From the NCBI GenBank assembly GCA_031428975.1, contig JANOYR010000062.1, positions 11,368 to 75,367 on the forward strand: a DNA stretch of 64,000 nucleotides, read 5' to 3'. The notes beneath the pieces are model-generated. The model saw only the letters and a list, made by a program, of their open reading frames with translations. It did no database searches and was not told the DNA's origin. How positions within the stretch are numbered: the first letter of the stretch is position 1; each line of letters opens with the position of its first letter. Origin of the DNA: Polaromonas sp. GTDB lineage: Bacteria; Pseudomonadota; Gammaproteobacteria; Burkholderiales; Burkholderiaceae_C. Shown one piece after another: positions 21,238 to 42,682 of the stretch. Both the position numbers and the translations under genes were made by a program.

Positions 21238-21274
21238 GAAATTTATCAACTTGAAAAATCGAAAGAGACTTGAC

Positions 21275-22393: not shown

Positions 22394-22405
22394 GACAAGG
22401 ATCCC

Positions 22406-23878: not shown

Positions 23879-23913
23879 GATTTAACAACACCGATCACTA
23901 CTACAAGGAAACC

Positions 23914-24705: not shown

Positions 24706-25728
24706 ATGAAAAAATTAGCCAATGTCACCGCCATACTGTCATATACTGCTATATTAAGCATAGCGCCTAGTATAGTTTTTGCGCAATCCGATTACCCTAG
24801 CAAAGCGGTCAAAATCATTGTGCCATTTCCAGCGGGCGGCACCAGCGACGTGATGGCACGCATGGTGGCTGATGCGCTGACCAAGCAGCTCAAACAACCC
24901 TTTGTCGTTGAAAACGTAGGCGGCGCAGGAGGCACCATTGGCACCGAGCGCGGCGCTAAAGCCACGCCCGATGGCTACACCATCATCCAAACCGGTGTGG
25001 GCCAAAGTGCAGTAGCGCATGGGTTAGACCCCAACCTGAAATACAACTCAGTCACCGATTTTGTGCACCTGAGCCAAATCAATTCAGGGCCTAATGTCTT
25101 GGTGGTACACCCTGACCAACCATTTAAAACCCTCAAAGAACTGGTGGACTACGGCAAAGCCAACCCCGGCAAGCTCAACTACGGCTATACCCATGCCGCC
25201 TCTGGCCACATGGCCATGGAGTTGCTCAAGCAAACCGTGAGCACCTGCGTGACGGGAGCCAAAGGCGTGAAAGATTGCAAAGGCCTATATATGGTGGGTA
25301 TCCCTTATCGCGGCGGCGGCCCGATGATGACCGACATCTTGGGTGGCCAAATCCCCTTAATGTTCATCAACCAAGACACCGCCCTGCCCCATGTACGCGC
25401 TGGCAAACTGCGCCCTTTGGCGGTAACCAGCTTGCAGCGCAATGCCTTGTACCCCGATGTACCCACCATCAGCGAATCGGGCTACCCTGGGTTCTCTGCC
25501 GTGAGCTGGTCTGGATTGTCAGTGCCCAAGGGAACTCCTAAAGCCATAGCAGACAAGCTAGAAGCAGAAATCGCCACAGCCATGCAAAGCCCAGCCATTA
25601 AGCAGCGCATGGACTCCATCGGTTTTGTCATTGCACCCCAAGGTTCTGTGGCCTACAGCGCCTTTGTGAAGTCTGAGATGGAGCGCTGGACTCAGGTGAT
25701 CAAGACGGCTGGGATTAAGGCGCAGTGA
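24706..25728 (+). CDS. Bug-family (TctC-like) solute receptor
   Basis: ATG at 24706. Signal peptide MKKLANVTAILSYTAILSIAPSIVFA, then YPSKAVKIIVPFPAGGTSDVMAR. The signal-peptide codons coincide with repeat copy H. Confidence 0.9.
   Translation: MKKLANVTAILSYTAILSIAPSIVFAQSDYPSKAVKIIVPFPAGGTSDVMARMVADALTKQLKQPFVVENVGGAGGTIGTERGAKATPDGYTIIQTGVGQSAVAHGLDPNLKYNSVTDFVHLSQINSGPNVLVVHPDQPFKTLKELVDYGKANPGKLNYGYTHAASGHMAMELLKQTVSTCVTGAKGVKDCKGLYMVGIPYRGGGPMMTDILGGQIPLMFINQDTALPHVRAGKLRPLAVTSLQRNALYPDVPTISESGYPGFSAVSWSGLSVPKGTPKAIADKLEAEIATAMQSPAIKQRMDSIGFVIAPQGSVAYSAFVKSEMERWTQVIKTAGIKAQ
24715..24752 (-). repeat. 38-nt repeat family, copy H (degenerate, inside the Bug signal-peptide codons, antisense to the gene)
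   Basis: Minus strand reads ATAGCAGTATATGACAGTATGGCGGTGACATTGGCTAA, 31/38 identical to copy B. Confidence 0.75.
25681..25728 (+). repeat. 48-nt direct repeat, left copy (last 15 codons plus stop of the intact Bug gene)
   Basis: gagcgctggactcaggtgatcaagacggctgggattaaggcgcagtga matches 39776-39823 at 44 of 48 positions. Confidence 0.9.
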
Positions 25729-25740
25729 AACCGCAAATGC

Positions 25741-26508
25741 TCAAACTTTTGACCAGACGCTGATACCGTCTAGCAGCAGCGCCAATCCTTCCTCAAACGC
25801 TGCGATTGCGCTTAACTGCGCGAAGGCGTCTGCAACATAGTGCACAGCAGGAAACAAATCGACTGGCGTTTCTAGTAGTTTTGTCCGAATAAAGGCTGCG
25901 TGGTCTGACGGTAGCTGGTGACGGGCTTGCGCAGCGCTGCTAGAAACCACATGCTGCATTAGCAAGTGGTATGCCATGGCGACGCGTTCAGGCGATAGCC
26001 CTGTACTCTGCAAAAGCCGTGCCATTTGCTCAAATAGGGCAAGGCTGTAATTGATTTCCCCCTCGGCAACGATCTGGAAAAGGCGAAATCTGTTGTGCTC
26101 GACCAAATACGTTGCTACACCGCTGTAGCGCTGATTGAGTGCAAAAATCGTGCGTGACATGGCTTCGATTTGCGTGCGCCAGTCGCCGTTGGGCACGCCT
26201 AGCTGCTCAGCCCTAGCCTTGGCAAATAAATTGACCACACCAGAGATCAAACTGTCGCGGTCTTTGATGTAGTAATAAATCAATGCAGGCGTGACCTTTA
26301 AGTCATTGGCAAGCACGCTAAATGAGAGATCGGCGAGTGAATAAACGCGCGTCAGGTCAAACGCATGCTCCAAAATCGAAAGCCTAGAAAGGCTCTGCTG
26401 GGCACTGCCCACACCTACTTGCATCAAGATGCGTCCGCTTGTGGGGCGCCCAGGGCGGCGCACGGAGGATGTGGGGCTTATACCAGCCTTGGGTTTTGCA
26501 GATTTCAT
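25741..26508 (-). CDS. TetR-family transcriptional regulator
   Basis: ATG at 26508; the ORF-track start at 26520 is a GTG. N-terminal HTH region (ILEHAFDLTRVYSLADLSFSVLANDLKVTPALIYYYIKDRDSLI). Confidence 0.85.
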   Translation of the reverse strand: MKSAKPKAGISPTSSVRRPGRPTSGRILMQVGVGSAQQSLSRLSILEHAFDLTRVYSLADLSFSVLANDLKVTPALIYYYIKDRDSLISGVVNLFAKARAEQLGVPNGDWRTQIEAMSRTIFALNQRYSGVATYLVEHNRFRLFQIVAEGEINYSLALFEQMARLLQSTGLSPERVAMAYHLLMQHVVSSSAAQARHQLPSDHAAFIRTKLLETPVDLFPAVHYVADAFAQLSAIAAFEEGLALLLDGISVWSKV

Positions 26509-26634
26509 TTGATTTATCACAACAGTATTTTACAGTTACAGAAGACTTATTAACTATCCATTAATTTGTAATTGACAATCTCAAGAAAGGATGGCAATAT
26601 CGATATTAATTCTAAATTAATTAAATAGCATGCT

Positions 26635-27915
26635 ATGACATTATCAACAAAAAACGAGGCATCATCTTCACTGCAAGCTACCGCAGGCATGCGCGGCGTT
26701 CACTGGAACGAGCAGCGAATGGCGCGGCCGTACCGCCTTACGCTGCACCAACTGCGCACGGCTGACGGCCAACAAACAACGGGCTACCTTTACAGCCAAA
26801 CTGGCAATGAAAAAAGTGTGGTCTGCATCATGCACCCTCGCGAGTTGGGAGTGACGCACTATCTAGTGCCCGATATTTTGGACGCGGGCTACGCCTGCTG
26901 GATACAAGGTGCTCGCTCGGTAGGCAACGACCTGCGACTAGAGCACGAAACCGCCCTGTTTGATGTGGCCACTGGTATGACGCACTTGCACGCAGCTGGC
27001 TTTAGCGATGTTGTGCTACTGGGCAACTCAGGTGGTGCGGCTTTGTACGGTTTGTATACCCAACAGGCTGGACTATCACCTGAGCGCCGTATTGCTACCA
27101 CCCCCGCTGGCAGACCAACGAAACTGGATAATCTTGCCATGCCACTGCCCAGTCGCTTGGTATTCTTATCGCCCCATCCGGGGCCTGGCGCACTGCTGAT
27201 GGCTTGCATTGATGCATCCGCCGACAGCGAAACCGATCCGTTTTCCACAGTTGCGTCATTAAATCCGTTTTCTAAAGAAAATGGGTATGATGTCAGCGTC
27301 AAACAGTCAAAGTATGCTACTTATTTTGTAGCAAATTACCGCTTAGCGCAGCGCGAGCGAGTGGCTCGGATCGACGCTTTTGCCCATAGTTTGTTAGAGC
27401 GCAAAGCCAATGCTCGCAAGGCGCTTAAAAATGCAGCACCAGATCAAGCGTCCAACGAAAAGAATCAAATTGAAGCCGCCTTCGCACCGATTTTTCAGGT
27501 TTGGCGCACCGACGCAGACCTGCGCAGCTGGGATACCAGCATAGACTCATCTGACCGCAAAACTGGCTCACTATGGGGCAACGACCCGATTGCATCTAAC
27601 TACGGCAGCGTGGCATTTGGTCGTGTAGTTACACCCGAATCGTGGCTATCGACCTGGTCGGGATTATCGTCCAACGCAAGTTTTGAAAAATTTGGCATGG
27701 GTTTGGAGCAGCCCACACTGGTGGTGGAATACAGCGGCGACCAAGCGGTTTTTCCCGCTGATTTAGACTACATCTACGCCAGCATTGGCAGCAGCCTTAA
27801 AACCCGCCACCGCGTACGGGGCAACCACCACGGCCATCCGCTGGCCGCTGGTGAGGAGTCAGGCCAAGTCGCGGCTGGGCGAATGATAGGCCAATGGCTC
27901 AAGGAGTCAGCATGA
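26635..27915 (+). CDS. Alpha/beta-hydrolase-fold protein of unknown specificity
   Basis: 426-aa ORF. Nucleophile elbow LGNSGGA (G-x-S-x-G) and C-terminal GDQ..RGNHHG, candidate Asp/His residues. Its stop overlaps the ligase ATG (ATGA). Confidence 0.7.
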   Translation: MTLSTKNEASSSLQATAGMRGVHWNEQRMARPYRLTLHQLRTADGQQTTGYLYSQTGNEKSVVCIMHPRELGVTHYLVPDILDAGYACWIQGARSVGNDLRLEHETALFDVATGMTHLHAAGFSDVVLLGNSGGAALYGLYTQQAGLSPERRIATTPAGRPTKLDNLAMPLPSRLVFLSPHPGPGALLMACIDASADSETDPFSTVASLNPFSKENGYDVSVKQSKYATYFVANYRLAQRERVARIDAFAHSLLERKANARKALKNAAPDQASNEKNQIEAAFAPIFQVWRTDADLRSWDTSIDSSDRKTGSLWGNDPIASNYGSVAFGRVVTPESWLSTWSGLSSNASFEKFGMGLEQPTLVVEYSGDQAVFPADLDYIYASIGSSLKTRHRVRGNHHGHPLAAGEESGQVAAGRMIGQWLKESA

Positions 27916-29573
27916 ACAGCATGAGGCCCATTGGCGTGCGCCAGCCCATAGCAGGCGTGGTGTACCCCCCCGCTGACCGCTTAGCGCACTATATCAAACA
28001 AGGTGCCTTGGGAGTTCAAAGCCTCACCCAAGCGTTCACGACCGCATTTGCTGAGCATGGCAGCAGGGTCGCCATCAGCGGGCCAGAAGGCAATATGACC
28101 TATGCCCAGCTAAATGTGACTACTAGCCGCGTTGCTGCGGGTTTGATTGGTCTTGGCCTCAAGCCGCTGGATCGGGTCATTTTTCAGATGAGCAATTGTG
28201 CCGAGGTGTTGATTTGTTTCATAGCTTGCCTAAAGGCTGGCTTGATCCCCGTATGTACCCTGGCCCCTCACCGCGAACGTGAGATCGGCTATTTAGCTAA
28301 GCATGCCCAAGCCGTAGCCCATATCGTGCGTGGCGACGATCCACGCTTTGATGAAATCGCCTTCGCGCAGAAGATGCAACCACAAGCACCTACTCTACGC
28401 CACATCATTCAAACCCGTGGTGTACCTCAAGCAGGCACAGTTCAATTATCGAATTTAATAGCAAACAATGACCATTTGACAGTGACATTGCCCAAAATAG
28501 AGATGGATCCGTTCCAAGTAGCCGTATTTCAACTCTCAGGCGGAACATCTGGCGTACCCAAGATCATTCCACGGTTTCACAACGACTATGTGTGCCACAT
28601 GCAGGCAGTGTCCAAAGCCTGCGGCTTCACGGCGGATGACCGCATTTTTAACCCCCTGCCCATGATGCACAACCTGAATATGGGCTGTTTCTATGGCCCT
28701 GCACTGCTGTGCGGGGCCACGGTGTGCGTCACGCCAGACATGCAAAACACATCATTGGTGCGTATTTTTAAGGAACAAAAACCCACTTGGGTAATGCTCA
28801 CTGACCCGATCATCGCCAAGCTGCAAGTTGAAATTGATGCAGGCGAAATCAGTTTTACAGACCTGCGCGGTATTGTTGGCCCCAACAGCGCCCCGAAGAT
28901 GCGCGCGCTGACAGGCGCAGCCGCTTTCCATATATTTGGCATGACCGAAGGCGTCATCGCCTATACCCAGCCCCAGCATCCGCAGGCTGCGCTAGACCAG
29001 ACAGTGGGACAACCCGTGCACAGCCTCGATGAGATTCGCATAGTAAAAAGCGGGAGTGATCCGCACAATGGCCAGCTAGCAGCAGAAGGCGAAATGGGTG
29101 ATGCACAGTTTCGCGGCCCGTACACCATCCATGGCTACTATGCAGCACCAGAGCGCCAAGCGGAGTCGTTCACCAGCGACGGATGGTACTGCTCAGGCGA
29201 CTTAATGAGTTGGCGTGATATTGACGGCCAGCGTTATTACAGTTTCCAAGGCCGCACCAAAGACGTGGTGGACCGAGGCGGCGAGAAAATCAGTGCCGAA
29301 GAAGTAGAGTGGGCTTGTAATGCGCACCCAGCAGTGGCCGCCGCTGGCGTCATACCCATGCGCGATGCGGTGCTGGGTGAAAAAGTGTGTGTGTTCGTGG
29401 TGCTGAAAAACGGCTTTACGTCACTTTCTGTAGAGCAACTGGGCAACCATTTGCAAGAGTGGGGAATGGCCAAATTCAAATGGCCTGAACGCGTGGAATG
29501 CATTGCCCAAATGCCACTGACGCAATCGGGCAAGATGTCCAAACCAGATTTGCGGGCGTTGATTGAAGCCTAA
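27912..29573 (+). CDS. Aryl-acid adenylating enzyme / CoA ligase, EntE-DhbE-like (ANL superfamily)
   Basis: ATG at 27912 with aaggag RBS. FQLSGGTSGVPKIIPRFH (A3 motif), GMTEG, YYSFQGRTKDVVDRGGEKI (A8) and SGKMSK (A10). The N-terminal half parallels EntE as I recall it. Confidence 0.85.
   Translation: MNSMRPIGVRQPIAGVVYPPADRLAHYIKQGALGVQSLTQAFTTAFAEHGSRVAISGPEGNMTYAQLNVTTSRVAAGLIGLGLKPLDRVIFQMSNCAEVLICFIACLKAGLIPVCTLAPHREREIGYLAKHAQAVAHIVRGDDPRFDEIAFAQKMQPQAPTLRHIIQTRGVPQAGTVQLSNLIANNDHLTVTLPKIEMDPFQVAVFQLSGGTSGVPKIIPRFHNDYVCHMQAVSKACGFTADDRIFNPLPMMHNLNMGCFYGPALLCGATVCVTPDMQNTSLVRIFKEQKPTWVMLTDPIIAKLQVEIDAGEISFTDLRGIVGPNSAPKMRALTGAAAFHIFGMTEGVIAYTQPQHPQAALDQTVGQPVHSLDEIRIVKSGSDPHNGQLAAEGEMGDAQFRGPYTIHGYYAAPERQAESFTSDGWYCSGDLMSWRDIDGQRYYSFQGRTKDVVDRGGEKISAEEVEWACNAHPAVAAAGVIPMRDAVLGEKVCVFVVLKNGFTSLSVEQLGNHLQEWGMAKFKWPERVECIAQMPLTQSGKMSKPDLRALIEA
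28458..28495 (+). repeat. 38-nt repeat family, copy I (in frame inside the ligase gene)
   Basis: ATAGCAAACAATGACCATTTGACAGTGACATTGCCCAA, 33/38 identical to copy B. It is translated as IANNDHLTVTLP just upstream of the A3 motif. Confidence 0.85.
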
Positions 29574-29641
29574 AGCCCTAAGCCTATAAATCGCACTGGG
29601 ACTGCACACAGCGCACCAGAAAATATAAAGGAATTAATGCC

Positions 29642-30238
29642 ATGACTAAAACCACATTAAACGGCGTGCACCATTCCGCCCGCCCCACATGGAAACTCGA
29701 AGAAACTGTTACTTTTTACCGTGACAAAATGGGTTTGCCACTCGTTCACGCCATATCTGCCAAAGGCTGGGGGCCTGATAACCATGCCGATTTTTTGCAT
29801 TTCTTTTTTGACAGTGGCGGTGGCAGTACTATTGCATTTTTTTATTACATAGGCACGCAGCAACCCGACTGGGCTAAACCGCGTGAACATTATCAATACG
29901 TCGCCACGCATACGGCTTGGCAAGTCAACACGCGCGAGGAGCTGCTGGCTTGGCGCAGCAAAATAGAAGCTGCCGGCATTGAGTTTCAGTTCCAAATTGA
30001 ACACGAAGTCATCGAATCGATTTACTTCAAAGACCCCAACGGCTACCCCATGGAAATCGCTTGGCAGATGCGGCCATTTTCAAAGCTTGACCACCATGAT
30101 GCAAAGCGCACCCTGCAAGCGGCCATTGCCGCCGAACACGCTGGCAAGCAGGGCATTGCAGCCTTCACCTCTATCGAGCCGGTGTGGTTGCGCAAAGCGC
30201 AAGAAATTGCAGCAGATTTTGACAAAGCGGGGATTTGA
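29642..30238 (+). CDS. VOC (glyoxalase/bleomycin-resistance/extradiol-dioxygenase) superfamily protein, single domain plus C-terminal tail
   Basis: 198-aa ORF. NGVHHSARPT..TVTFYRDKMGL..HTAWQV..YFKDPNGYPMEI fit a VOC beta-alpha-beta-beta-beta module with His/Glu metal-ligand candidates. Confidence 0.7.
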   Translation: MTKTTLNGVHHSARPTWKLEETVTFYRDKMGLPLVHAISAKGWGPDNHADFLHFFFDSGGGSTIAFFYYIGTQQPDWAKPREHYQYVATHTAWQVNTREELLAWRSKIEAAGIEFQFQIEHEVIESIYFKDPNGYPMEIAWQMRPFSKLDHHDAKRTLQAAIAAEHAGKQGIAAFTSIEPVWLRKAQEIAADFDKAGI

Positions 30239-30242
30239 AAAA

Positions 30243-30515
30243 ATGGCTACCTTATTTGTCTTGGATGTTCCAGAATTTAGCGCAATCGTTCGCCATTGCC
30301 AAACTGATGCAAGCTTTCAAGTAAGTGTCCCCAAGCTTGGGTATTGGCGTATTGTGCGGGCAGGCGAGATCACCCTATACCGGAAAGAGCTAGGTTTCAA
30401 GCACGCCGTTTGGTACGGGGTGGCCACAGGCGGCTTGCTGGGTCACATCACGCAGTTTGACCAACAAGCTTTGGTCATTTCTGACACACCAGCAGGAGCA
30501 ATACATGAAGATTGA
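30243..30515 (+). CDS. Small hypothetical protein (90 aa), no recognisable domain
   Basis: An internal ATG at 30243 in ORF 29979-30515, 5 nt after the VOC stop. It overlaps the monooxygenase start by 11 nt. Tight operon packing is the only support. Confidence 0.45.
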   Translation: MATLFVLDVPEFSAIVRHCQTDASFQVSVPKLGYWRIVRAGEITLYRKELGFKHAVWYGVATGGLLGHITQFDQQALVISDTPAGAIHED

Positions 30516-31680
30516 CGTGATTGGCGCAGGGCCAGCTGGGCTCTATTTGTCGATGCTGGTCAAAAAGCGGCAACCAAACTGGAGCGTGACTGTATACGAA
30601 CAAAACGCCCCCAATGCCAGCTTTGGTTTTGGCGTGGTGGTAGCAGATGCAGGTTTGGCGCGGCTGCGCCAAGTAGATGCAGCCAGCCACGATGCATTGG
30701 TGTCCAATATGCGTTTTACCAACACACAAACCATAGTGCAAAAGGAGCAGGCAATTGACTTGCGGCAAGACAGCCCCAGTGGTGGTGCAATCAAGCGCTT
30801 GGATTTGCTGCGCGTACTAGGCGATGCTGCACTGGCTGCAGGGGTTAGCGTACATTACGGCCAGCGCATCAATGATTTTGCCGCATTGGATGCTGACTTG
30901 TTAGTAGGCGCAGACGGTGTCAATTCTGCTTTGCGCAATGCCAACGAGGCAGCTTTTGGCACGACACGCAGCCTGCTGACCAACCACTTTGCTTGGTTTG
31001 GCACATCACGCGTATTTGACAACCCTGCCTTGGTATTTCGCCGCTTTGAACACGCTGGACATGTAGGCTATGCTGTGGCGCATTACTACCCCTACTGTGA
31101 CAACATGAGCACTTTTGTAGCTGAATGCGACCACGGCACGTGGCTGCGCATGGGGTTAGAAACCGCATCTGATTGGCAGCGCCAAGCCCTCTTTGAGGTT
31201 GTATTCGCTCCCGAGCTGGCCGGTCACACTCTGCAAGCTAACAACAATACCCTGAACACCGTTTGGCGGCAGTTTCCAGTGGTGCGAAATGTCCAGTGGA
31301 CATCTGGCAACCAAGTTTTATTGGGAGATGCGCAGTCTAGCGCCCATTTTTCAATTGGCTCAGGCACGCGCATCGCCATGGAAGATGCAGCTGCGCTGGC
31401 CCAAGCCCTGCTGACACATAGCAAAAGTGTGCAAGATGCGTTAACTAGTTTTGTACAAACACGCAAACCTTTCAAAGACCGCCTAATTGCTGCATCACAG
31501 CTATCCTATGAATGGTATGAATGCATGGAACGACACATGGAAGCACTTTCCCCGCATGCCTTTGTGCACAGTTACATGACGCGCACTGGCAGGGTGGACA
31601 ATGCAAAATTAGCATTGCAATTCCCAGAATTCATGGCGCAATGGGCATATGAGCAACGCATTAAAATACTCACCATTTGA
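30505..31680 (+). CDS. FAD-dependent monooxygenase resembling the hydroxylase module of aryl-CoA (2-aminobenzoyl-CoA / salicylyl-CoA type) monooxygenases
   Basis: ATG at 30505 with aggag RBS. MKIDVIGAGPAGLYLSMLVKKRQPNWSVTVYEQN..FGFGVV, then GADGVNS and LLGDAQSSAHFSIGSGTRIAMEDAAAL. The specific family assignment is from memory of the N-terminal pattern. Confidence 0.75.
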   Translation: MKIDVIGAGPAGLYLSMLVKKRQPNWSVTVYEQNAPNASFGFGVVVADAGLARLRQVDAASHDALVSNMRFTNTQTIVQKEQAIDLRQDSPSGGAIKRLDLLRVLGDAALAAGVSVHYGQRINDFAALDADLLVGADGVNSALRNANEAAFGTTRSLLTNHFAWFGTSRVFDNPALVFRRFEHAGHVGYAVAHYYPYCDNMSTFVAECDHGTWLRMGLETASDWQRQALFEVVFAPELAGHTLQANNNTLNTVWRQFPVVRNVQWTSGNQVLLGDAQSSAHFSIGSGTRIAMEDAAALAQALLTHSKSVQDALTSFVQTRKPFKDRLIAASQLSYEWYECMERHMEALSPHAFVHSYMTRTGRVDNAKLALQFPEFMAQWAYEQRIKILTI

Positions 31681-31717
31681 TAGCAAGCATTGACCATATT
31701 ACGGTGACATTGTATGA
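31680..31717 (+). repeat. 38-nt repeat family, copy C
   Basis: ATAGCAAGCATTGACCATATTACGGTGACATTGTATGA, 29/38 identical to copy B. It spans the whole spacer from the monooxygenase stop (TGA ends 31680) to the thioesterase ATG (31714). Confidence 0.88.
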
Positions 31718-32211: not shown

Positions 32212-32224
32212 AAATATCCGTAAG

Positions 32225-33037
32225 CTATATGCTCAACAAAGCACCATCGACCACAATATCTGCGCCGTTGACCAAACGCGATTCGTTGGATGCTAAAAAT
32301 ACTACCGCATAGGCAACATCGTCGGGCTCCCCCAAACATTGAAAAGGGTGCAAATCCTTCAAAGCTTGCACCGCCCTGTCTGCGCCTACATGCTTTGCTG
32401 CCGCATTCTCACTAAGCGGAGTTCTGATATAGCAAGGATGGATAGCATTAATGCGGATGTTATAGCTTTTTTTAGCACACATCACGGCCGCTTGCTTGGT
32501 GAGACTGCGTACACCGCCCTTGCTTGCGCCGTACGCCGAACCTCCCGGCGTTCCCACGTAGGCGGCCACAGAGCCAATATTGATAATTGAACCACCACCC
32601 GAATCCTTCATCAAAGCTACCGCTTCACGCATGCCTAAGAACGTACCATCTAAATTAACGTCCATGATGCGTCTCCAGTCTTCAAAGCTAGTCAGCTCAA
32701 ACGATGGTGGGGGCGGTAGCGCGATGCCTGCATTGTTGACCAACACATCTATTTTTCCAAAACGTTTGACAGTCTGGGCTAGCACGTCGCGCCAACTGGT
32801 TTCTAGTCGCACATCAAGTTGAAAAAATGCAGCAGGAATACCTTGATCATGCAATATTTTTAATGCCGCATCTGCGTGCGCGAATCCGACATCGCTTAAA
32901 ACTACGGCAGCGCCATCTTGCCCTAATCGCAGTGCAATCGCAGCGCCTATGCCACCTAAAGCTCCAGTAATCAAGACAACTTTACCTTGGACGCGCCCTA
33001 TGCGTGACACGCTAGGATGCATATTTTTATCCATCAT
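32225..33037 (-). CDS. Short-chain dehydrogenase/reductase (SDR)
   Basis: 270-aa ORF. VLITGALGGIGAAIA, NNAG and YGASKGG motifs. Confidence 0.88.
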   Translation of the reverse strand: MMDKNMHPSVSRIGRVQGKVVLITGALGGIGAAIALRLGQDGAAVVLSDVGFAHADAALKILHDQGIPAAFFQLDVRLETSWRDVLAQTVKRFGKIDVLVNNAGIALPPPPSFELTSFEDWRRIMDVNLDGTFLGMREAVALMKDSGGGSIINIGSVAAYVGTPGGSAYGASKGGVRSLTKQAAVMCAKKSYNIRINAIHPCYIRTPLSENAAAKHVGADRAVQALKDLHPFQCLGEPDDVAYAVVFLASNESRLVNGADIVVDGALLSI

Positions 33038-34011
33038 TATTGTGGTTCAAGACCGACCTTTTTAATGACTGCGGCCCAACGCTCCACCTCGCTTTTGAGA
33101 AAAGCCGTAGAGTCGACTTGACTTTTTGGTGCGGGGAAAAGGCTGATATCGCGCATTTTGCCGACAATTTCGGGCAAAACCAGTACCCCATTCATATCCT
33201 TGTTGATCTTGGACGCCAAATCCGCAGGCATACCCTTAGGTCCCAACAATGAAAACCAACCAACTGCTACATAGTTGGGCACGACATCTTTAACCAACGG
33301 AATATCCTCCAAGCCTGGCAAACGCACCGCAGTGGTGACGGCTATAGGCTTGATACGCCCAGCTTTTACCAAAGGCAATAGTGGCGCAATGCCGTCCACA
33401 TAATAGTGCAAATCACCTTTTACTAACGCTGCAATAGCTTGCGCGGGTTGGTTAAATGGCACATGTTGCAAACTGACCCCTGTACCCTCCGCAATACTAT
33501 GCCCAACTAGAAATGGCAGCGTCGCCTGTTCGGGGCTACCAAAAGGAGTTGCGCCAGGTTTTGCTTTTGCTGCTTTGATCATGTCTGGCAAATTTTTAGC
33601 GCCAAGGTCGTTGTTCGCCACAATCATCATGGGTGAATCAGCCACAATGCCCAGAGTAGTGAAGTCATTGACAGGGTCATACTTCGCTGCTTTAAGAATT
33701 TTAGGGGTAACCAGCACCGCACCAGCATGGGCGAACATGAATGTGTGGGTATCAGCCGAGTCTTTCACAAAATTCATGGCGATCATGCCACCTGCACCCG
33801 GGCGATTGTCAATTACTACTGGTTGCCCCCATAATGCTGAAAGGCGTTCACCCACCATGCGCGCTGCAACATCTGGCACGGTACCTGCTGGTGCCCCTAA
33901 GACCAGTTTAATGGGTTTACTGGGCCAGCTCGATTGAGCACATGCAATGCCGATGCTGCTCGTAGCAACTGCTGCTACGATGATGGTTTTAAAAAATTGG
34001 CTGCGTTTCAT
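33037..34011 (-). CDS. Bug-family (TctC-like) solute receptor
   Basis: ATG at 34011 with aaggag RBS; the ORF-track start at 34062 lies inside the upstream gene. MKRSQFFKTIIVAAVATSSIGIACA signal peptide, then WPSKPIKLVLGAPAGTVPDVAAR. Confidence 0.88.
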   Translation of the reverse strand: MKRSQFFKTIIVAAVATSSIGIACAQSSWPSKPIKLVLGAPAGTVPDVAARMVGERLSALWGQPVVIDNRPGAGGMIAMNFVKDSADTHTFMFAHAGAVLVTPKILKAAKYDPVNDFTTLGIVADSPMMIVANNDLGAKNLPDMIKAAKAKPGATPFGSPEQATLPFLVGHSIAEGTGVSLQHVPFNQPAQAIAALVKGDLHYYVDGIAPLLPLVKAGRIKPIAVTTAVRLPGLEDIPLVKDVVPNYVAVGWFSLLGPKGMPADLASKINKDMNGVLVLPEIVGKMRDISLFPAPKSQVDSTAFLKSEVERWAAVIKKVGLEPQ

Positions 34012-34048
34012 AGTGAAGTCTCCTTGGTGGTTTACAGTTAAAAAGAAA

Positions 34049-34975
34049 TTAAAGTTTGACACTCATTTGGCCTTTTAGTCCTAGCATGGCGCGTGCCTCG
34101 TTGGGAGTGGCTATTTCTAAACCCAGTGACTCCAAAATGCTTCGGATGAGTTTGACTTGATCAGCGTTGCTTGTGGCTAACTCGCCGCGTCCAAGGTACA
34201 GCGAGTCTTCTAGCCCTACACGCACATTACCCCCCATCAACGCGGCTTGGGTAATCAGTGGCATTTGCCTGCGTCCCGCACCCAACACAGACCATAAGTA
34301 GTTATCGCCAAATAACTTGTCTGCAATACGCTTCATGTGCGTAAGATTCTCTGCGTCACCTCCAATTCCGCCCAGCACACCCAGCACGAATTGAATAAAT
34401 GGATTTTTGACATACCCACGTTTAACAAAATGCTCTAGCGTGTATAAGTGACCCACGTCGTAACACTCAAATTCAAAACGAGTACCTAAGGGCTTAGCTA
34501 CTCGCTCAAAGAGTTGCTCAATATCACCAAAAGTATTGCGGAAAAAACCATTGCGCGAGCCTTCCAAAAATTTGGGCTCCCATGGATATTTCCAATCGGT
34601 CATTTTTTCTGCGGCAGGAAAAAAACCAAAATTCATAGTGCCCATGTTGCATGAAGCCATTTCAGGCGCAATATCTAATGCGGCTTCAAGTCTCTGATCC
34701 ATGGTCATGGTGGCAGCCCCACCAGTCGTAATATTGATAACTGCATCAGTTTTCGCGTGGACAGGTGCAAGTGCCTCACGGTATAGCGCTGGTTCAAATG
34801 CTGGGCTTCCGTCTTCTGGATTGCGCACATGCAGATGTAAAACTGCAGCACCAGCCTGAGCGGCTGCAATCGACTCCCTCGCGATCTGTTCTGGTGTAAT
34901 AGGTAGATATGGTGACATGCTTGGCGTATGTATAGAACCAGTAATAGCGCAAGTGATGATGACTTTATGCGCCAT
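34049..34975 (-). CDS. Beta-keto acid cleavage enzyme (BKACE / 3-keto-5-aminohexanoate cleavage enzyme family, DUF849)
   Basis: 308-aa ORF. MAHKVIITCAITGSIHTPSMSPYLPITPEQIA..AGAAVLHLHVRNPEDG is the characteristic BKACE N-terminus. Confidence 0.82.
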   Translation of the reverse strand: MAHKVIITCAITGSIHTPSMSPYLPITPEQIARESIAAAQAGAAVLHLHVRNPEDGSPAFEPALYREALAPVHAKTDAVINITTGGAATMTMDQRLEAALDIAPEMASCNMGTMNFGFFPAAEKMTDWKYPWEPKFLEGSRNGFFRNTFGDIEQLFERVAKPLGTRFEFECYDVGHLYTLEHFVKRGYVKNPFIQFVLGVLGGIGGDAENLTHMKRIADKLFGDNYLWSVLGAGRRQMPLITQAALMGGNVRVGLEDSLYLGRGELATSNADQVKLIRSILESLGLEIATPNEARAMLGLKGQMSVKL

Positions 34976-34977
34976 AT

Positions 34978-35856
34978 CTATACTCCCAGCACTGGCTCAG
35001 CAACCACACGGTTTTCTATATGCCCTATTCCAGTTATTTCTGCACGTATCACATCCCCAATTTTTAAAAACTGTGGGGGCTTCATCGCTACGCCCACACC
35101 AGAAGGCGTGCCAGTGGCGATCAAATCACCTGGCTCTAGCGTGAATGCAGTGCTTAAATGTTCGATTTGCTGCCAAATGTTGTACACCATGCAGCTTGTA
35201 GACTCCGCTTGGCGTAATTGTCCATTTACCAGCAGCCGCATAGCTAAGCTGTGGGGATCTGGTACTTCGTCTGCTGTGACTATCCAAGGACCAATCGGAC
35301 CCGTGGTGTTGAACGACTTACCCATGGTCATAGTCGGTGAACGCATCTGCCAGTCACGCACAGTTACATCGTTAGCCACCATATATCCTGCCACTACGCT
35401 CGGTGCATCATCCGCTTTGACATGGCGGCAACGTTTTCCTATAACGACACACAGTTCTACTTCGTAATCAAGCTTGTTGGACGCTATAGGCAGATGCACA
35501 TCACCGTATGGCGAGTTGATACACGAAACCTGTTTGTTAAACCATACTTGTGTTTCTGGCACATTAATTCCAGCCGCTACTGCCTCAGCCACATGCTTTG
35601 CATAGTTCATGCCAATAGCCAAATACTTGGACGGATTGGGCACTGGTGCTAACAATTGCACATCGGCCAAAGGAATGGTGACGCTACTTGCTGCCACCAG
35701 AGCGCTGGTTCGCTGCATAGCCTGCGTACCAGACTGTAAAAGCGCCAGCATCGTATTTGGCAAACTTGCGTCCGATGCTGGCAAATCAATGACCTGTGAA
35801 GCAACTAATTTACCGATACTGACGCGGCCATGGTGTGAGAATGTACAAAGTTTCAT
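34978..35856 (-). CDS. Fumarylacetoacetate hydrolase (FAH)-family hydratase/decarboxylase/hydrolase
   Basis: 292-aa ORF. DYEVELCVVIGK..GKSFNTTGPIGPW..EPGDLIATGTPSGVG motifs. Confidence 0.85.
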   Translation of the reverse strand: MKLCTFSHHGRVSIGKLVASQVIDLPASDASLPNTMLALLQSGTQAMQRTSALVAASSVTIPLADVQLLAPVPNPSKYLAIGMNYAKHVAEAVAAGINVPETQVWFNKQVSCINSPYGDVHLPIASNKLDYEVELCVVIGKRCRHVKADDAPSVVAGYMVANDVTVRDWQMRSPTMTMGKSFNTTGPIGPWIVTADEVPDPHSLAMRLLVNGQLRQAESTSCMVYNIWQQIEHLSTAFTLEPGDLIATGTPSGVGVAMKPPQFLKIGDVIRAEITGIGHIENRVVAEPVLGV

Positions 35857-35862
35857 AGTGAT

Positions 35863-36807
35863 TTATTCAAAAAATTCAGGCGTAACTGGAGGAGCCCACT
35901 GCGAGAGGCCAGCAGGAGACAGCGGCATGTGGGTGCGAATATGATTTTGGTTGACCAAGTCTCCATCCGTCCAATGCTCAATTTTGTTGCCAAACGGGTC
36001 ACGCCAATAATCAAAGAGCTGGCTGCCCTGCACATGTCGGCCAACACCCCAACTGTGTTTCCAGCCCGTGGCTTTGAGGTGCGCATTACCAGTCATCAAA
36101 TCGTCTAGATCTGTCACCTCAAAAGCCACATGGTCAAAGCGTGGCGCCTCAATACCGCCAGGAGGCGAGCCAAACGCCAAGGTGTGGTGGTCAGTGAACG
36201 TATCCCCTAGTCCACAATGCAAAAAAGCGAATGTGGTGTGCGTAGGGTCTTCCATGTGGTACGAGTCAGATATTTCAAAACCTAGCACTTGGTGATAAAA
36301 ATCAAACATGGGTTGAAAATGTGGCACAAGTAAAACCAAATGCCCCAGACGCTGGATCTGCGATGGTGCTGTATTCACACGCAAGGAGGCACCTAAGCGC
36401 CGCCGAGAATCTGCGACATTGCACGCCAAAGATGGGCGACTTTCCAACAAAGGCAAGGTTTGCTGCCCATGAATTACCTCAACAGCAAAACCCGCCGGGT
36501 CACTGAAGCACACTTTCTCACCACCACCGGGTGCATCGCAAGTTTGTACTTTTTTTCCCAAATGACGCGCTAAGGTGTGCAAATCTTGCGCACTTTGGGC
36601 GCGCAAACCAAAGCCCAATGGGGCTGCCTGCGCAGTGCGCTGCGTAATATGTACATGGTGTGCACTGCCATGGGCTCGCATGTACAAATACTCTGCATTG
36701 CGTACGACGCAGCTCAGGCCAAAGTCTGTTAAAAATCGCTCCATCTGTTCTAAATCGGGTGCGCCATAACGTACATATGCAATATCTTGAATGGTGATGA
36801 CGGGCAT
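35863..36807 (-). CDS. Two-domain VOC-superfamily extradiol ring-cleavage dioxygenase
   Basis: 314-aa ORF. RLGHLVLLVP..FLHCG..DHHTLAF..FDHVAFEV..GVGRHVQGSQLFDYWRDPFGNKIEH fit type I extradiol dioxygenases. Confidence 0.8.
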   Translation of the reverse strand: MPVITIQDIAYVRYGAPDLEQMERFLTDFGLSCVVRNAEYLYMRAHGSAHHVHITQRTAQAAPLGFGLRAQSAQDLHTLARHLGKKVQTCDAPGGGEKVCFSDPAGFAVEVIHGQQTLPLLESRPSLACNVADSRRRLGASLRVNTAPSQIQRLGHLVLLVPHFQPMFDFYHQVLGFEISDSYHMEDPTHTTFAFLHCGLGDTFTDHHTLAFGSPPGGIEAPRFDHVAFEVTDLDDLMTGNAHLKATGWKHSWGVGRHVQGSQLFDYWRDPFGNKIEHWTDGDLVNQNHIRTHMPLSPAGLSQWAPPVTPEFFE

Positions 36808-38496
36808 TTATGAGCTCTCCAAACAGTAAGCGACACATTGTGCGAGAATTTTTTCAGCGTTGGCAACTGCACTACCGCGCCATGCAATGTGGTGGTCCGG
36901 GCGAATCAGCACGCAGTCTGCGCCATACAGCGCGTGAGCCGCTTCATTTTCAACGCGCAAGACCACAAGTGGCAAATTGCAATCAAGTGCGAAGGCACTC
37001 CACTGCGCAGTATCGGCATCTGTGAAACACAGCAGGGTAAAGTCACGACCAAATAAATCAAGCAAAGAACCGTTGATAGTCGCAACATGCGGCGCACGAG
37101 AGCCAGCGTAAGCGCTAGGAAAATAGGCATTGGGATCATCAGGAGGAGGATCAGCAATCTCTTTGGCTACGATGCGACTTACATAGCGCAGGCCAAGCTG
37201 TAATCCGGGAATATTGAATTCTTTGTCCCCATGGGTTAGTAGCGCTTGTTGCATCACCTTGCGTGCTGCTCCGCCTAACGAATCGCTAGCTTCCAAAGCC
37301 TCTGGCATCTGCATGCCCCCAATGCTTTGCGCCATACTTCGTGCAAAGCGTGTGTTTCGCACTGCAACTGGGTGGCGCTCAGCATGGTAGGTCTCTAGCA
37401 AAGTTGCGTCGCCCCAGCCTTGGCATATTGCAGCTAGCTTCCAGCCCAAATTCACAGTATCGTCAACGCTGGTGTTGTAGCCCATTCCACCAGTGGGCGT
37501 GAAAAGGTGCGCCGCGTCACCCGCAATCAGCAATCGACCATTTTTAAACTGCTGCGCAACCAGCATAAACCCCGCAGTCCAAGGACTTAGGCTGATAACT
37601 TCATACGCAAAAGGAGGATGCGATGTGCCCGCCAAATCCTGTAGCACAGCAGCGATATTGACTTCGCCTGGGCCCTGCCCAGGTTTGAGCTGAATTCCTA
37701 TAGCAAACTCATCTAGTCCATTTATCGCCACTAATACGCCACGCTGCTGCGCATTCATGATCCAAGTCATCCATGCTGGATTTTTGAGTGGGCCAGTAGT
37801 CAAGCGTTCATATAAATCTGGCGACCGGAAATGGATACTAAGCATTTGACCACCAAAAAATGCCTGCTGCTCTGCACTCGCACCTTCGTATTGCACACCC
37901 ATGGCTTTGCGCACTAGGCTGCGCGGGCCATCGCAGCCTACCAAGTATTTAGCATTGACTGATACCGTTTTTTGAGTGGCGAGCTCTTTTGCCTGTAGGC
38001 TAGCACTTTCCAAATTTTGATTGACTTCGTTTACTTGCCAACCATAGTGTGTGGACACGCATGGGTATTTCGCAACTTCTTCGCGTAGTATTTTTTCCAC
38101 CAGCATTTGTTGCACACGGTGCGGCAGTTCGGGCGTGGGCCAAGCAGCCTCCGTGTAGTCACCAAAACTCACTCCACTGGCCACATCAGCCCGTGAGGGG
38201 ATGCGAAAACGTGCAATTTCATGACCTAAAAGACGCGTGCAGTACAAGACATCTTGTGGATGATCCGGCGTGAGACCAGCTGCTCGCACGCGATGTGCAA
38301 AACCACGTCGTCGAAAATGCTCCATTGTGCGTGCAGATGTGGCATTGGCTTTAGGGGCAGTCGGCGCATCTAACCCCGCATCGAATAGCACGCAAGGAAC
38401 GCTTCTGCAACCGAGCTCTATTGCCAACATCAGGCCCGCAGGACCTGCGCCAACGATGGCAACTTGTGTATTTAAAACTGAAGCAGTGTTTTGCAT
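36808..38496 (-). CDS. FAD-dependent aromatic hydroxylase (PheA/TfdB/MhpA-type, with C-terminal thioredoxin-like domain)
   Basis: 562-aa ORF. VAIVGAGPAGLMLAIELG, CDGPRSLVR and IAGDAAHLFTPTGGMGYNTSVDD motifs. Confidence 0.85.
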   Translation of the reverse strand: MQNTASVLNTQVAIVGAGPAGLMLAIELGCRSVPCVLFDAGLDAPTAPKANATSARTMEHFRRRGFAHRVRAAGLTPDHPQDVLYCTRLLGHEIARFRIPSRADVASGVSFGDYTEAAWPTPELPHRVQQMLVEKILREEVAKYPCVSTHYGWQVNEVNQNLESASLQAKELATQKTVSVNAKYLVGCDGPRSLVRKAMGVQYEGASAEQQAFFGGQMLSIHFRSPDLYERLTTGPLKNPAWMTWIMNAQQRGVLVAINGLDEFAIGIQLKPGQGPGEVNIAAVLQDLAGTSHPPFAYEVISLSPWTAGFMLVAQQFKNGRLLIAGDAAHLFTPTGGMGYNTSVDDTVNLGWKLAAICQGWGDATLLETYHAERHPVAVRNTRFARSMAQSIGGMQMPEALEASDSLGGAARKVMQQALLTHGDKEFNIPGLQLGLRYVSRIVAKEIADPPPDDPNAYFPSAYAGSRAPHVATINGSLLDLFGRDFTLLCFTDADTAQWSAFALDCNLPLVVLRVENEAAHALYGADCVLIRPDHHIAWRGSAVANAEKILAQCVAYCLESS

Positions 38497-38590
38497 GTGC
38501 GGATGCTAAAACATATAAAGTGATATAAAAAGATGGCAGAATAGTTTTATTGATACTTTTTTGTATTCACTAAACGGACAATCACTTTTC

Positions 38591-39496
38591 ATGCATCCCA
38601 ACATCAAATTACACCATTTACGAGACTTTGTAGCGATTGCCCAGTACAGCAGCGTGCGTGGGGCAGCGCGGGCTTTGGGCATGGCACAACCAGCCATGAC
38701 GCGTAGTTTGCGAGAACTGGAGAAAGAGCTGCAAACACCACTGGTAGAGCGCCACGCGAAGGGTGTCATTCTTACTGAAGCGGGCAACAGGCTTCTGGTG
38801 CGAGCGCAGGGCGTGATGCAGGAGGTACGCCGTGCCGGTGAGGAAATCAGGCAATTAGGTGGATCGGGCGCAGGCACTGTGAGTGTCGGTTTATCCAGCG
38901 CAGCTATGTTAGGCTTATTGCCGCAAGCACTAGCGGCATTTCGTGCCCATTTTCCACTTGCAAAACTGCGCATTGTGGAGGGTGTGTACCCCACCATTGA
39001 ATCACGTCTACTCAATGGGCAACTGGATTTTTTTGTAGGCCCTTCGCCCGAACGGCGCGACAAATCGTTGAGCCAAGAGCTGATATTCACCAATGAACGC
39101 GTGGTGGTCGGACGTAAAGGTCACCCATTGCATGCAGCTAACAGTCTTGCGCAACTCACGCAAGTAGATTGGGTACTCACTGGCTTGCGTGAAAGAGAAG
39201 CACAAGAATATGAGGAGCTATTTGCTACCTATGATTTGCCTGCACCTAAAACCAGTATGCGCATCGAATCTACATTGGGACTTTTAAGTGTATTGGCATC
39301 CACAGATGCTTTAGTGCTCCTGCCAAGGCAATGGACGGACAGCTCAATGTTTAAAGCCCTGCTGATCGCCATCCCTGTACAAGAAAAGCTGCTGGCACCT
39401 GATATTGTGTTGATCTACCGAGCCAGCGTACCGTTGACACCTGTAGCAGAGAAATTGGCAACTTTACTGCAGCGTCAGGCGGGAACTCAATCTTAA
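38591..39496 (+). CDS. LysR-family transcriptional regulator
   Basis: ATG at 38591, giving the canonical MHPNIKLHHLRDFVAIAQYSSVRGAARALGMAQPAMTRSLRELE HTH. It is divergent from the hydroxylase operon. Confidence 0.88.
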   Translation: MHPNIKLHHLRDFVAIAQYSSVRGAARALGMAQPAMTRSLRELEKELQTPLVERHAKGVILTEAGNRLLVRAQGVMQEVRRAGEEIRQLGGSGAGTVSVGLSSAAMLGLLPQALAAFRAHFPLAKLRIVEGVYPTIESRLLNGQLDFFVGPSPERRDKSLSQELIFTNERVVVGRKGHPLHAANSLAQLTQVDWVLTGLREREAQEYEELFATYDLPAPKTSMRIESTLGLLSVLASTDALVLLPRQWTDSSMFKALLIAIPVQEKLLAPDIVLIYRASVPLTPVAEKLATLLQRQAGTQS

Positions 39497-39605
39497 CCAG
39501 TATTTACGTATGGCGGATTCAAGTACGAAGTGCGCAAAATGTAAACAGGTAGGCTCCAAAGGAATAGGATGCTCTCTTTTTTGACCAGCCAGTCTGAAAG
39601 CGCAC

Positions 39606-39782
39606 ATGACCTACAACCAATTGAGTCCAAATGAACGATATCAAATTTCTGCCCTGTTAACCGCAGGATGCAGCAAAACCGCCACTTCCCAACAACTCAA
39701 ACGCCACCGCAGCACCATTGATCGAAAGATCGCCCGCACTGGGGATGCCCAGTCTACGAACCCGAAGCTGCCCACGAGCGTT
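39606..39782 (+). mobile_element. IS30-family transposase gene stump (N-terminal HTH only, frameshifted and truncated)
   Basis: MTYNQLSPNERYQISALLTAGCSKTATSQQLKRHRSTIDRKIAR fits the IS30 N-terminal pattern (L..ERYQI..L...G.S...IA..L.RH.STI.REI.RN). A -1 shift near 39738 restores ..WGCPVYEPEAAHER, similar to the ..GYRPKQAH.. continuation. No catalytic DDE region follows. Confidence 0.7.
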
Positions 39783-39823
39783 GGACTCAGGTGATCAAGA
39801 CGGCTGGGAGTAAGGCGCAGTAG
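39776..39823 (+). pseudogene. 48-nt direct repeat, right copy: orphan 3-prime remnant of a Bug-family gene
   Basis: gagcgttggactcaggtgatcaagacggctgggagtaaggcgcagtag, 44/48 identical to 25681-25728. It would encode ERWTQVIKTAGSKAQ-stop, versus ERWTQVIKTAGIKAQ-stop in the intact gene. Confidence 0.85.
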
Positions 39824-39845
39824 GGTCTCTTGGTTGACATTTTGT

Positions 39846-41612: not shown

Positions 41613-41697
41613 AAGCTGGGTCTCGGGTAGTTGTGCATTGAAGTTTCGCGCCTTCAAATGACAGCGTCCAATGCATTATTAGGTTACCATTTATGCA

Positions 41698-42642: not shown

Positions 42643-42682
42643 TTTCCCTTTACTTGACGAATGAAAAATACAGCGCCCGCCA

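Follow-up and report, generated by a model that had tools for sequence, protein, structure and literature searches.

Does a short direct repeat of a gene end, placed on either side of low-GC catabolic genes, mark the two edges of an integrated island, or can it arise in another way? The question is raised by BugA (24706-25728, plus strand), an intact gene for a Bug/TctC-family periplasmic solute-binding protein (PF03401 at 7e-67) located in a 64-kb window, by which the whole stretch of DNA that was analyzed is meant. The final 15 codons and the stop codon of BugA (25681-25728, plus strand) recur on the same strand at 39776-39823, and a first-pass annotation had taken the two copies for attL/attR-like boundaries of a 14-kb island. 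The evidence assembled here suggests that the 48-base repeat was probably left as a scar by recombination within a larger block of acquired aromatic-degradation genes, a patchwork of 17 kb.

The repeated gene end and the broken transposase beside it

The two copies are identical at 44 of 48 positions (46/46 minus 2 when the alignment is restricted to 25681-25726), with a BLAST E-value of 6e-16 in a search within the window. The downstream copy comprises 15 codons and a stop codon and has no gene body, homology to BugA being absent upstream of 39776; it represents only the last 15 codons of a PF03401 protein and is not a gene. The encoded peptide ends in ERWTQVIKTAGSKAQ and that of intact BugA in ERWTQVIKTAGIKAQ, each directly before the stop, and the fragment differs from BugA by an I to S replacement and an altered stop codon. 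Five Bug genes are found in the window, and the 44/48 match of the fragment to BugA compares with 10-28/48 for the four other paralogues. The fragment also has the codons ACT CAG in common with BugA of this genome, whereas relatives carry ACG CGG or ACG CAA at this place. ACT CAG comprises two lineage-specific synonymous or near-synonymous variants that differ from those of the relatives at 96-98% identity, hence their presence in the fragment points to an origin within the lineage.

Directly adjoining the fragment is the 5' stump of an IS30-family transposase gene (39606-39775, plus strand), which spans about 57 codons, is frameshifted near 39745 and is cut off at 39775. The likeness to the IS30 family lies in the N-terminal HTH_38 domain of the transposase (2e-9), the only domain in the stump; in tblastn, annotated IS30-family transposases are matched at 44-52%, and the nearest protein representatives are 64-66% identical. 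In contrast to a member of the family, the stump is frameshifted and no DDE domain follows it; it is no active element but a passive scar. Neither terminal inverted repeats nor a target duplication of the IS30 could be identified, and the segment 39497-39605 has no inverted partner within the window, the right end of the IS30 having been deleted. A distant blastn search of the stump DNA against plasmids gave no match, and a full-length copy of this IS30 was not recovered in the protein-representative search, which returned mostly fragments. Homology to BugA starts abruptly where the IS30 reading frame is cut. As IS-mediated events end at the termini of the IS and not within the transposase gene, a start of BugA homology inside the IS30 gene indicates an illegitimate joint or a deletion joint.

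Mobility machinery is missing more widely: the 64-kb window holds no integrase, excisionase, tRNA, further transposase or transfer gene, and neither a tyrosine nor a serine recombinase was detected when each of its 58 ORFs of 150 aa or longer was scanned against Pfam. The structural description given in the first-pass annotation therefore stands, namely the 48-nt repeat, the second copy lacking an upstream gene body, its direct fusion to an IS30 transposase stump and the statement that no integrase remains, which holds across the whole window.

Boundaries and make-up of the acquired block

Contigs from five relatives (82-98% nucleotide identity) join the stop of BugA (25729) directly to 42701, the 3' end of a convergent gene for an FAD-dependent monooxygenase (42683-43942, minus strand; 419 aa, with orthologues of 416-421 aa). 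The blastn break points are 25729/42701 in L014 and L107, the two contigs at 96-98% nucleotide identity, and 25726/42704 in L011-L013, which are at 82-88%. Since the empty sites join 25729 to 42701, the repeat pair is not the boundary of the inserted DNA, and the real insert amounts to about 17 kb (25730-42700; about 16,971 bp missing from the five contigs). This insert is wedged exactly between the stop codons of BugA and the FAD monooxygenase, both of which are core genes, and also takes in an amidohydrolase gene and a second LysR gene (LysR2), with the right-hand repeat lying 2.9 kb inside it and not at its edge. The 14-kb boundaries proposed earlier have to be given up accordingly, and the empty site predicted with them, in which the Bug gene would run directly into the amidohydrolase gene at 39846, was not found.

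BugA is the final gene of a conserved synteny block, the upstream order RraA-BugA being kept in L011-L014, L107, and L108, and orthologues of the FAD monooxygenase are directly convergent with BugA in relatives. BugA orthologues comprise 340-aa proteins at 98-100% identity and a 338-aa form at 89%. Over its full length to the stop codon, the complete gene shares 96% identity with the orthologues of L014 and L107. Profiles of mismatches along it, drawn against L014, L107, and L011, revealed a single mosaic patch of about 100 nt (approximately 25006-25105, 20 differences) and no clear switch between donor and recipient sequence near the BugA 3' end. On the other side, the right junction rewrote the final codons of the FAD monooxygenase, which ends in ...DAVPQPTN here and in ...DAVKA in L014, each followed by a stop. 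A third Bug fragment was considered at this junction because the 8-nt motif CGGCTGGG just before 42701 recurs in the Bug 3' end, and was rejected as chance: the 58-nt junction aligned to the last 200 nt of BugA no better than shuffles did, with a local alignment at p about 0.06 that moreover involved not CGGCTGGG but a different motif, a 9-mer.

With respect to composition, the first-pass annotation had given 45-52% GC inside the repeats and 58-68% in the flanking genes. A difference does exist, but these figures overstate it, as the GC content is 51.0% between the repeats, 55.5% to the left and 54.0% to the right, and windows of 1 kb range from 47 to 54% inside and from 50 to 61% outside. Inside and outside are separated better by GC3, which per gene is 0.505 inside (n = 13 genes) and 0.625 outside (n = 43; Mann-Whitney p = 9e-7). 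The interval between the repeats is thereby supported as accessory DNA, being distinct in composition and missing from close relatives. It is not homogeneous, however, as its left operon has a GC3 of 0.52-0.58 and its right operon one of 0.43-0.49. Three modules that differ in GC3 (0.55 in module A, 0.47 in module B and 0.58 in module C, compared with 0.625 in the core) make up the insert, which is a mosaic and not a single element. The gene content that had been listed for the 14,047 bp between the copies, namely a TetR gene, an aryl-CoA cassette, a hydroxylase/dioxygenase operon and a LysR gene, was confirmed.

The left end of module A is formed by a TetR-family regulator gene (25741-26424, minus strand; PF02909; 227 aa as called from L001), the stop of which lies 12 nt past that of BugA and the best non-self homologue of which is 53% identical. 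The module A cassette itself (26635-32211, plus strand) encodes a conserved 426-aa protein, an aryl-CoA ligase, a glyoxalase-fold protein, an ORF of roughly 90 aa, an FAD monooxygenase similar to the N-terminal domain of salicylyl-CoA 5-hydroxylase, and finally a thioesterase of the 4HBT type. Two other contigs (L105 and L106) hold the cassette with the TetR gene at 43-69% amino acid identity in another context. Module A shares with salicylyl-CoA/gentisyl-CoA clusters the CoA ligase for aryl acids, the salicylyl-CoA 5-hydroxylase-like FAD monooxygenase and the thioesterase, and we take it to be comparable to Sdg-like clusters for CoA-dependent hydroxylation of aromatic acids; the match to NCBIfam NF006101 is partial, with scores far under the equivalog cut-offs (291 vs 1078 bits). 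It differs from these clusters in adding the conserved 426-aa protein, which belongs to no family and could interest researchers working on aromatic catabolism.

The operon of module B (32225-38496, minus strand) encodes a group-A FAD aromatic hydroxylase (562 aa), an extradiol dioxygenase, an FAH-family hydrolase, a BKACE protein, a Bug solute-binding protein and an SDR, and its LysR-family regulator gene (38561-39496, plus strand) is divergent from it. The BKACE protein scores above the NCBIfam cut-off for 3,5-dioxohexanoate:acetyl-CoA acetone transferase (493 vs 430 bits); a metagenome scan with it returned 80 loci, of which the best was 74% identical, and synteny did not extend past FAH-BKACE. 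The cargo is thus without near relatives in the databases, at 53% for the best TetR and 74% for the best BKACE, whereas for the flanking BugA there are relatives at 98-99%. Modules B and C are separated by the IS30 5' stump and the 48-nt BugA fragment alone. Module C consists of a gene for an Amidohydro_3 (YtcJ-like) amidohydrolase (39846-41612, minus strand; GC3 0.59; best homologues 88-89% identical) and the divergent LysR2 regulator gene (41698-42642, plus strand). The LysR/amidohydrolase pair is kept in L002, L004, L007-L009, L096-L103, and probably in L095, where the gene is truncated; the surroundings differ every time, and a Bug gene never follows downstream. A genome scan with the amidohydrolase yielded nine loci with the pair in varied contexts and likewise no downstream Bug gene, as was the case in the contigs of the closest homologues, and the two genes of module C recur as a unit in 10 or more unrelated contexts.

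A probable displacement of the BugA 3' end

The reading that we favor, with a probability of roughly 0.6, is that a homologous left joint combined with an illegitimate right joint, or with a later deletion, displaced the resident 3' end of BugA. The fragment would then be the old 3' end of BugA itself, and module C would at an earlier stage have stood directly after BugA. DNA arriving from a closely related strain would have brought in an entire BugA allele with modules A and B and the IS30 behind it, and would have recombined homologously within or upstream of BugA. Its other end would have been joined illegitimately, IS30 codon 57 or so to BugA codon 325 or so, possibly via a GAGCG microhomology: opposite the ...YEPEAAHER of the stump, which is followed across the joint by W, the nearest IS30 relative has ...YEAAVAQERAL, so that the parental IS may have held GAGCG at the joint, as judged from a protein of 66% identity in place of the parental IS30 DNA, which was not recovered. 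Alternatively, a single-crossover (Campbell-type) integration may have duplicated the BugA region, with a subsequent deletion from the IS30 into the second BugA copy giving the same product. By either route, the resident 3' end would have moved 14 kb to the right together with all that follows it, and the displaced fragment would have decayed afterwards, acquiring the I to S replacement and the altered stop codon. Only general and illegitimate recombination would be involved, and neither a site-specific recombinase nor an att site.

The pattern resembles sequential displacement or homology-facilitated illegitimate recombination (HFIR). Both HFIR and single-crossover integration have been described (PMC3240628), and the end product alone does not separate HFIR from a Campbell integration plus deletion. 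As expected for HFIR, an intact homologous anchor, the complete BugA, stands beside the new DNA, and a resident 3' end, the BugA-specific 48-nt fragment, is kept downstream of the cargo. Simpler intermediate arrangements in other strains were not found: the databases searched held neither BugA followed by the amidohydrolase pair nor BugA followed by modules A and B with a full IS30, and the contigs retrieved contained no BugA-amidohydrolase or BugA-island-monooxygenase arrangement, only fully empty sites. Displaced 3' ends are left by the same class of mechanism at T6SS effector arrays and Rhs loci (PMC5361080). The locus resembles the effector-immunity arrays of V. cholerae and the orphaned 3' ends of Rhs/CDI loci in that a conserved upstream gene provides the homology for anchoring, new cargo arrives together with a complete gene end, and the resident 3' end is kept and shifted together with the downstream genes (PMC5361080). 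No dedicated recombinase takes part in such sequential displacement or HFIR, and none is present here. The other joint is made there without homology or through a few bases of microhomology; here, homology is absent upstream of 39776 and the GAGCG microhomology is a possibility. In contrast to those loci, the anchor is a gene for a periplasmic solute-binding protein and the cargo consists of catabolic operons rather than toxin-immunity pairs; there is one displaced 3' end and hence no array, the illegitimate joint falls within the transposase gene of an IS30, and intermediates were not observed.

An alternative that we regard as unlikely retains the att reading in nested form, with module C already downstream of BugA when an integrase-type element that bore a copy of the BugA 3' end inserted site-specifically into the gene; the two copies would be attL and attR, and the integrase and the right end of the element would have been lost in the deletion that truncated the IS30. 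Integration into gene 3' ends with regeneration of the gene is a known design, seen in islands at tRNA, tmRNA and guaA-type sites, and the locus is like these in its direct repeats of a gene 3' end, in a gene regenerated through its stop codon and in a low-GC3 cargo of different composition that is missing from relatives. It differs from them in that the integrase is absent, together with any recombinase, excisionase or transfer gene in 64 kb, and in that the second repeat lies off the boundary of the DNA that relatives lack. On its left, the attR-like copy begins at the internal IS30 break, hence the length of 48 nt reflects an illegitimate joint or deletion endpoint and not an att core. Furthermore, the copies differ at 4 of 48 positions and the cargo is itself a two-part mosaic. 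Plasmids, metagenomes and the protein collection yielded no second instance of the island or of such an att, and megablast of 25000-40500 against plasmids gave no match. Nothing specifically favors an att-type event nested in an older insertion, and the attL/attR interpretation of the first-pass annotation, with its right repeat internal to the insert, was not upheld.

About as unlikely is that the amidohydrolase/LysR pair was imported with 48 nt of its donor's downstream BugA orthologue, so that the fragment never belonged to the BugA of this chromosome. Module C is mobile and accessory, with a best homologue at 89% as against the 99% relatives of BugA, and the fragment is convergent with the amidohydrolase gene across a gap of only 22 nt from its stop. 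However, a Bug gene does not lie downstream in any of roughly 20 homologous amidohydrolase loci, and nucleotide homology to those loci ends at the amidohydrolase stop codon. The ACT CAG codons of the fragment are moreover those of this genome's BugA and not those of other orthologues, and an import of this kind leaves the direct fusion to an internally broken IS30 unexplained.

Very improbable, in our estimate, is that the stop region of BugA is a recurrent site of directed insertion, at which an unrecognized process stacks cassettes one by one and regenerates the 3' end, leaving behind a further copy of it on each occasion; the recombinase would have been lost or would be encoded elsewhere, and the fragment would be a surviving att-like site. 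Least credible of all is an assembly artifact (a chimeric contig at the repeats) or a chance or paralogue-level similarity of Bug C-terminal motifs: Bug genes are multi-copy and the IS30 appears to be so in the sample, because breaks occur at 39615 and 39688 in the Logan contigs of run SRR20217179, but these independent contigs reproduce both joints at 99.99-100% identity (L001, window 25157-39615, the BugA-TetR junction; L109, 39688-42922, the IS30 stump, Bug fragment, amidohydrolase and right junction), and the 44/48 match with its E-value lies far from the paralogues.

Accumulation of catabolic genes between convergent core genes

A direct repeat of a gene end beside low-GC cargo is insufficient for calling an att-flanked island; comparison with relatives shifted the boundary by 2.9 kb and altered the proposed mechanism. 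The arrangement is one of ordinary bacterial genome flux and holds no surprise for specialists. In the favored reading, it would neatly illustrate, in a natural setting, the way in which genomes of the Burkholderiales type accumulate catabolic operons between convergent core genes by general and illegitimate recombination, with an IS serving as a breakpoint only, and the cargo assembled in this way couples a cassette for CoA-dependent hydroxylation of aromatic acids to a ring-cleavage/BKACE operon.

A 17-kb insert between two convergent genes

A search with the intact Bug/TctC solute-binding protein gene at 24706-25728 of the forward strand (BugA; PF03401 at 7e-67) recovered orthologues at 99%, 98%, and 89% identity, and in five of five contigs from relatives BugA is followed by a directly convergent core FAD-monooxygenase gene (42683-43942 in the window) and then by another Bug gene (43952-44917). 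Three of these contigs, with 82-88% nucleotide identity to the window (L011, L012, and L013), join 25726 to 42704, and the two at 96-98% (L014 and L107), which come from samples ERZ28654292 and ERZ28654503, join 25729 to 42701, hence the DNA that is missing there is 25730-42700, or ~17 kb. The first-pass annotation had proposed a 14-kb island bounded by att-like 48-nt repeats, and an empty site in which the Bug gene is followed by the amidohydrolase gene. Such a site was found nowhere, the relatives joining BugA to the FAD-monooxygenase gene instead, and the 14-kb limits do not hold, since the missing DNA also takes in the amidohydrolase gene (39846-41612) and a second LysR gene (41698-42642), and the right-hand repeat copy (39776-39823) sits 2.9 kb within the insert, not at its edge. 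What survives of the island reading is an accessory and compositionally distinct interval; judged from the sequence, the 14,047 bp between the repeat copies belong to a patchwork of 17 kb that separates two convergent core genes.

The right junction falls within the 3' end of the monooxygenase gene (42683-42700), and the insertion has therefore altered the tail of a core protein, which ends ...DAVPQPTN* in the window and ...DAVKA* in L014; the monooxygenase gene of L011-L013 overlaps BugA by 14 nt. Eight nucleotides at the right junction, CGGCTGGG, also occur in the Bug 3' end, a match that was not significant. Two Logan contigs of run SRR20217179 show the same structure, one (L001) matching 25157-39615 at 99.99% identity and the other (L109) matching 39688-42922 at 100% and running from the IS30/Bug joint through the BugA fragment and the amidohydrolase and second LysR genes to the right junction, which makes a contig chimera unlikely. 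Other than one transposase stump, no transposase, integrase, excisionase, transfer gene or tRNA was found in the 64 kb, in agreement with the first-pass annotation that no integrase remains, and nothing in the insert points to self-mobility. Housekeeping genes to its right (moaE, moeA, thrC, and hom) indicate that the region is chromosomal.

In L011-L013 an ILVD/EDD dehydratase gene (end at 18186) is directly followed by an RraA-like gene (start at 23911), whereas the window has 5.7 kb between them (18187-23910), with a Bug gene and genes for an Ldh_2 dehydrogenase, a GntR regulator, an SGL lactonase and an aldehyde dehydrogenase, and a further relative's contig (L108) has a GntR gene only. 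This is a second indel that sets the window apart from its relatives, and the neighbourhood as a whole is a cassette patchwork. A block at 53937-58134, which encodes a LysR regulator, a Bug protein, a Lyase_1/ADSL_C lyase and an SDR and which the relatives' contigs stop short of, has a low GC3 of 0.50-0.54 versus 0.63 in the core and may be a further acquired cassette.

Cargo and composition of the insert

The genes that the first-pass annotation had listed between the repeat copies are all present there and fall into two modules. Module A (25741-32211) consists of a TetR gene and a cassette encoding a 426-aa protein, an aryl-CoA ligase, a glyoxalase-fold protein, a small ORF, an FAD monooxygenase that resembles the N-terminal domain of salicylyl-CoA 5-hydroxylase, and a thioesterase; this cassette recurs in another context in two further contigs (L105 and L106) at 43-69% amino acid identity. 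The 426-aa protein (26635-27915) matches no Pfam or NCBIfam family, has 68% identity to its counterpart in the same cassette of L105/L106, and is an uncharacterised partner of this CoA-dependent aromatic hydroxylation cassette; its gene overlaps the start of the ligase gene, suggesting translational coupling. Module B (32225-39496) encodes an aromatic hydroxylase, an extradiol dioxygenase, an FAH-family hydrolase, a BKACE protein, a Bug protein, an SDR and a LysR regulator. The BKACE protein (34049-34975) scores 493 bits against the NCBIfam equivalog for 3,5-dioxohexanoate:acetyl-CoA acetone transferase (cut-off 430), a hint that the ring-cleavage pathway encoded here finishes with a triketide or beta-diketo acid intermediate and does not follow a classical meta-cleavage route.

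Module C (39846-42642) is the amidohydrolase/LysR pair. At ~20 loci with amidohydrolase homologues (45-89% amino acid identity, mostly >70%) the pair forms a two-gene unit in many unrelated contexts, nucleotide homology ends at the limits of the two genes, and a Bug gene lies downstream of the amidohydrolase in none. The insert is a mosaic of these three modules. Because modules A and B consist of genes without close relatives (best TetR match 53%, best BKACE match 74%), whereas the flanking core genes have relatives at 96-98% nucleotide identity, the insert is accessory and was probably acquired.

The contrast of 45-52% against 58-68% GC reported earlier is smaller when computed in full (51.0% between the copies, 55.5% to the left and 54.0% to the right), while the distinct composition itself is borne out by GC3: the 13 genes inside have 0.505 and the 43 outside 0.625 (Mann-Whitney p = 9e-7). 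Between the copies GC3 is 0.52-0.58 in the left operon and 0.43-0.49 in the right operon, and in module C it is 0.57-0.59.

The BugA fragment and its joint to IS30

The repeat is real and derives from BugA. Copy 1 (25681-25728) comprises the final 15 codons and stop codon of BugA, and copy 2 (39776-39823) is identical at 44/48 positions, as first described (BLAST E = 6e-16 within the window), and translates as ERWTQVIKTAGSKAQ* with no gene body upstream. Since the fragment has only 10-28/48 positions in common with each of the four other Bug genes of the window, the likeness is more than ordinary paralogue conservation. At two fragment positions BugA differs from its 96-98% relatives, and the fragment agrees with this genome at both: the codons are ACT CAG in BugA and the fragment, ACG CGG in L014 and L107, and ACG CAA in L011-L013. 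The fragment's own changes (a synonymous CGC>CGT, an Ile-to-Ser ATT>AGT, and an altered stop codon) fit the decay of a non-coding relic, hence the fragment most likely derives from the BugA of this lineage.

Within BugA, a ~100-nt stretch (25006-25105) has 20 differences from L014 and L107, which share one sequence over those positions, compared with 0-6 per 100 nt in the remainder of the gene; this suggests a short tract of recombination or gene conversion. Beyond this mosaic patch, the mismatch profile holds no informative switch from donor to recipient near the BugA 3' end. A 25-nt inverted repeat (25206-25230 and 44408-44432, 96% complementary) reflects unusually high local identity between BugA and the otherwise diverged paralogue at 43952-44917.

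Directly left of copy 2 lies the 5' stump of an IS30-family transposase gene (39606-39775, first ~57 codons), as the first-pass annotation had it; the stump matches HTH_38 at 2e-9, annotated IS30-family transposases at 44-52% identity (tblastn) and its closest cluster representatives at 64-66%, is frameshifted near 39745 and is cut at 39775. BugA homology begins exactly at this break in the reading frame, and IS-mediated rearrangements end at IS termini and not within the transposase gene, so that the joint is one of illegitimate recombination or deletion. The closest relative reads ...YEAAVAQERAL and the stump, after the frameshift, ...YEPEAAHER|W; the parental IS30 may have carried GAGCG at the joint, in common with GAG CGC of BugA; a parental IS reading on as ...GCCCACGAGCG... 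would fit such a microhomology joint. Searches recovered no full-length copy of this IS30. Logan contigs of SRR20217179 end at 39615 and 39688, flanking the start of the stump (~39586-39717), which suggests that this region is multi-copy in the sample and that full-length copies are therefore probably present elsewhere in the genome.

Proposed recombination at BugA

Descent of the fragment from the lineage's own BugA means that at some earlier stage BugA would have been directly convergent with module C. Donor DNA from a closely related strain, in which a complete BugA allele was followed by modules A and B and by the IS30, could then have recombined homologously within or upstream of BugA, while an illegitimate joint formed between its far end and a point in the resident BugA 48 nt short of the stop codon, with the resident 3' end left displaced downstream of new cargo. 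This corresponds to homology-facilitated illegitimate recombination as defined in PMC3240628, where single crossovers are also discussed. Alternatively, integration by a single crossover would have given two copies of the BugA region, and a deletion would then have run from within the IS30 to within the second BugA copy. The two routes yield the same end product and are not separable from it; as one family of explanations they are favoured, at a probability of roughly 0.6. No intermediate arrangements of a stepwise build-up were found in the relatives or at the homologous loci.

An integrase-driven island nested in the insert would preserve the original idea of att-like ends, yet it requires an intermediate that was not seen, a lost integrase and a deletion ending by chance at the att edge, and a second instance was found nowhere; we consider it unlikely. 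Arrival of the fragment as hitch-hiking donor DNA with module C is similarly improbable, as the fragment carries lineage-specific BugA variants and no homologous amidohydrolase has a Bug gene beside it. An artefact or chance match is very improbable given the E-value, the low paralogue identities and the two Logan contigs that reproduce the structure.

The second repeat copy is most likely a recombination scar. PMC5361080 proposes the same outcome, a 3' end displaced behind cargo, both for arrays of T6SS effector-immunity genes and for orphan 3' ends of Rhs, and the locus adds one more case to a known kind of genome flux.
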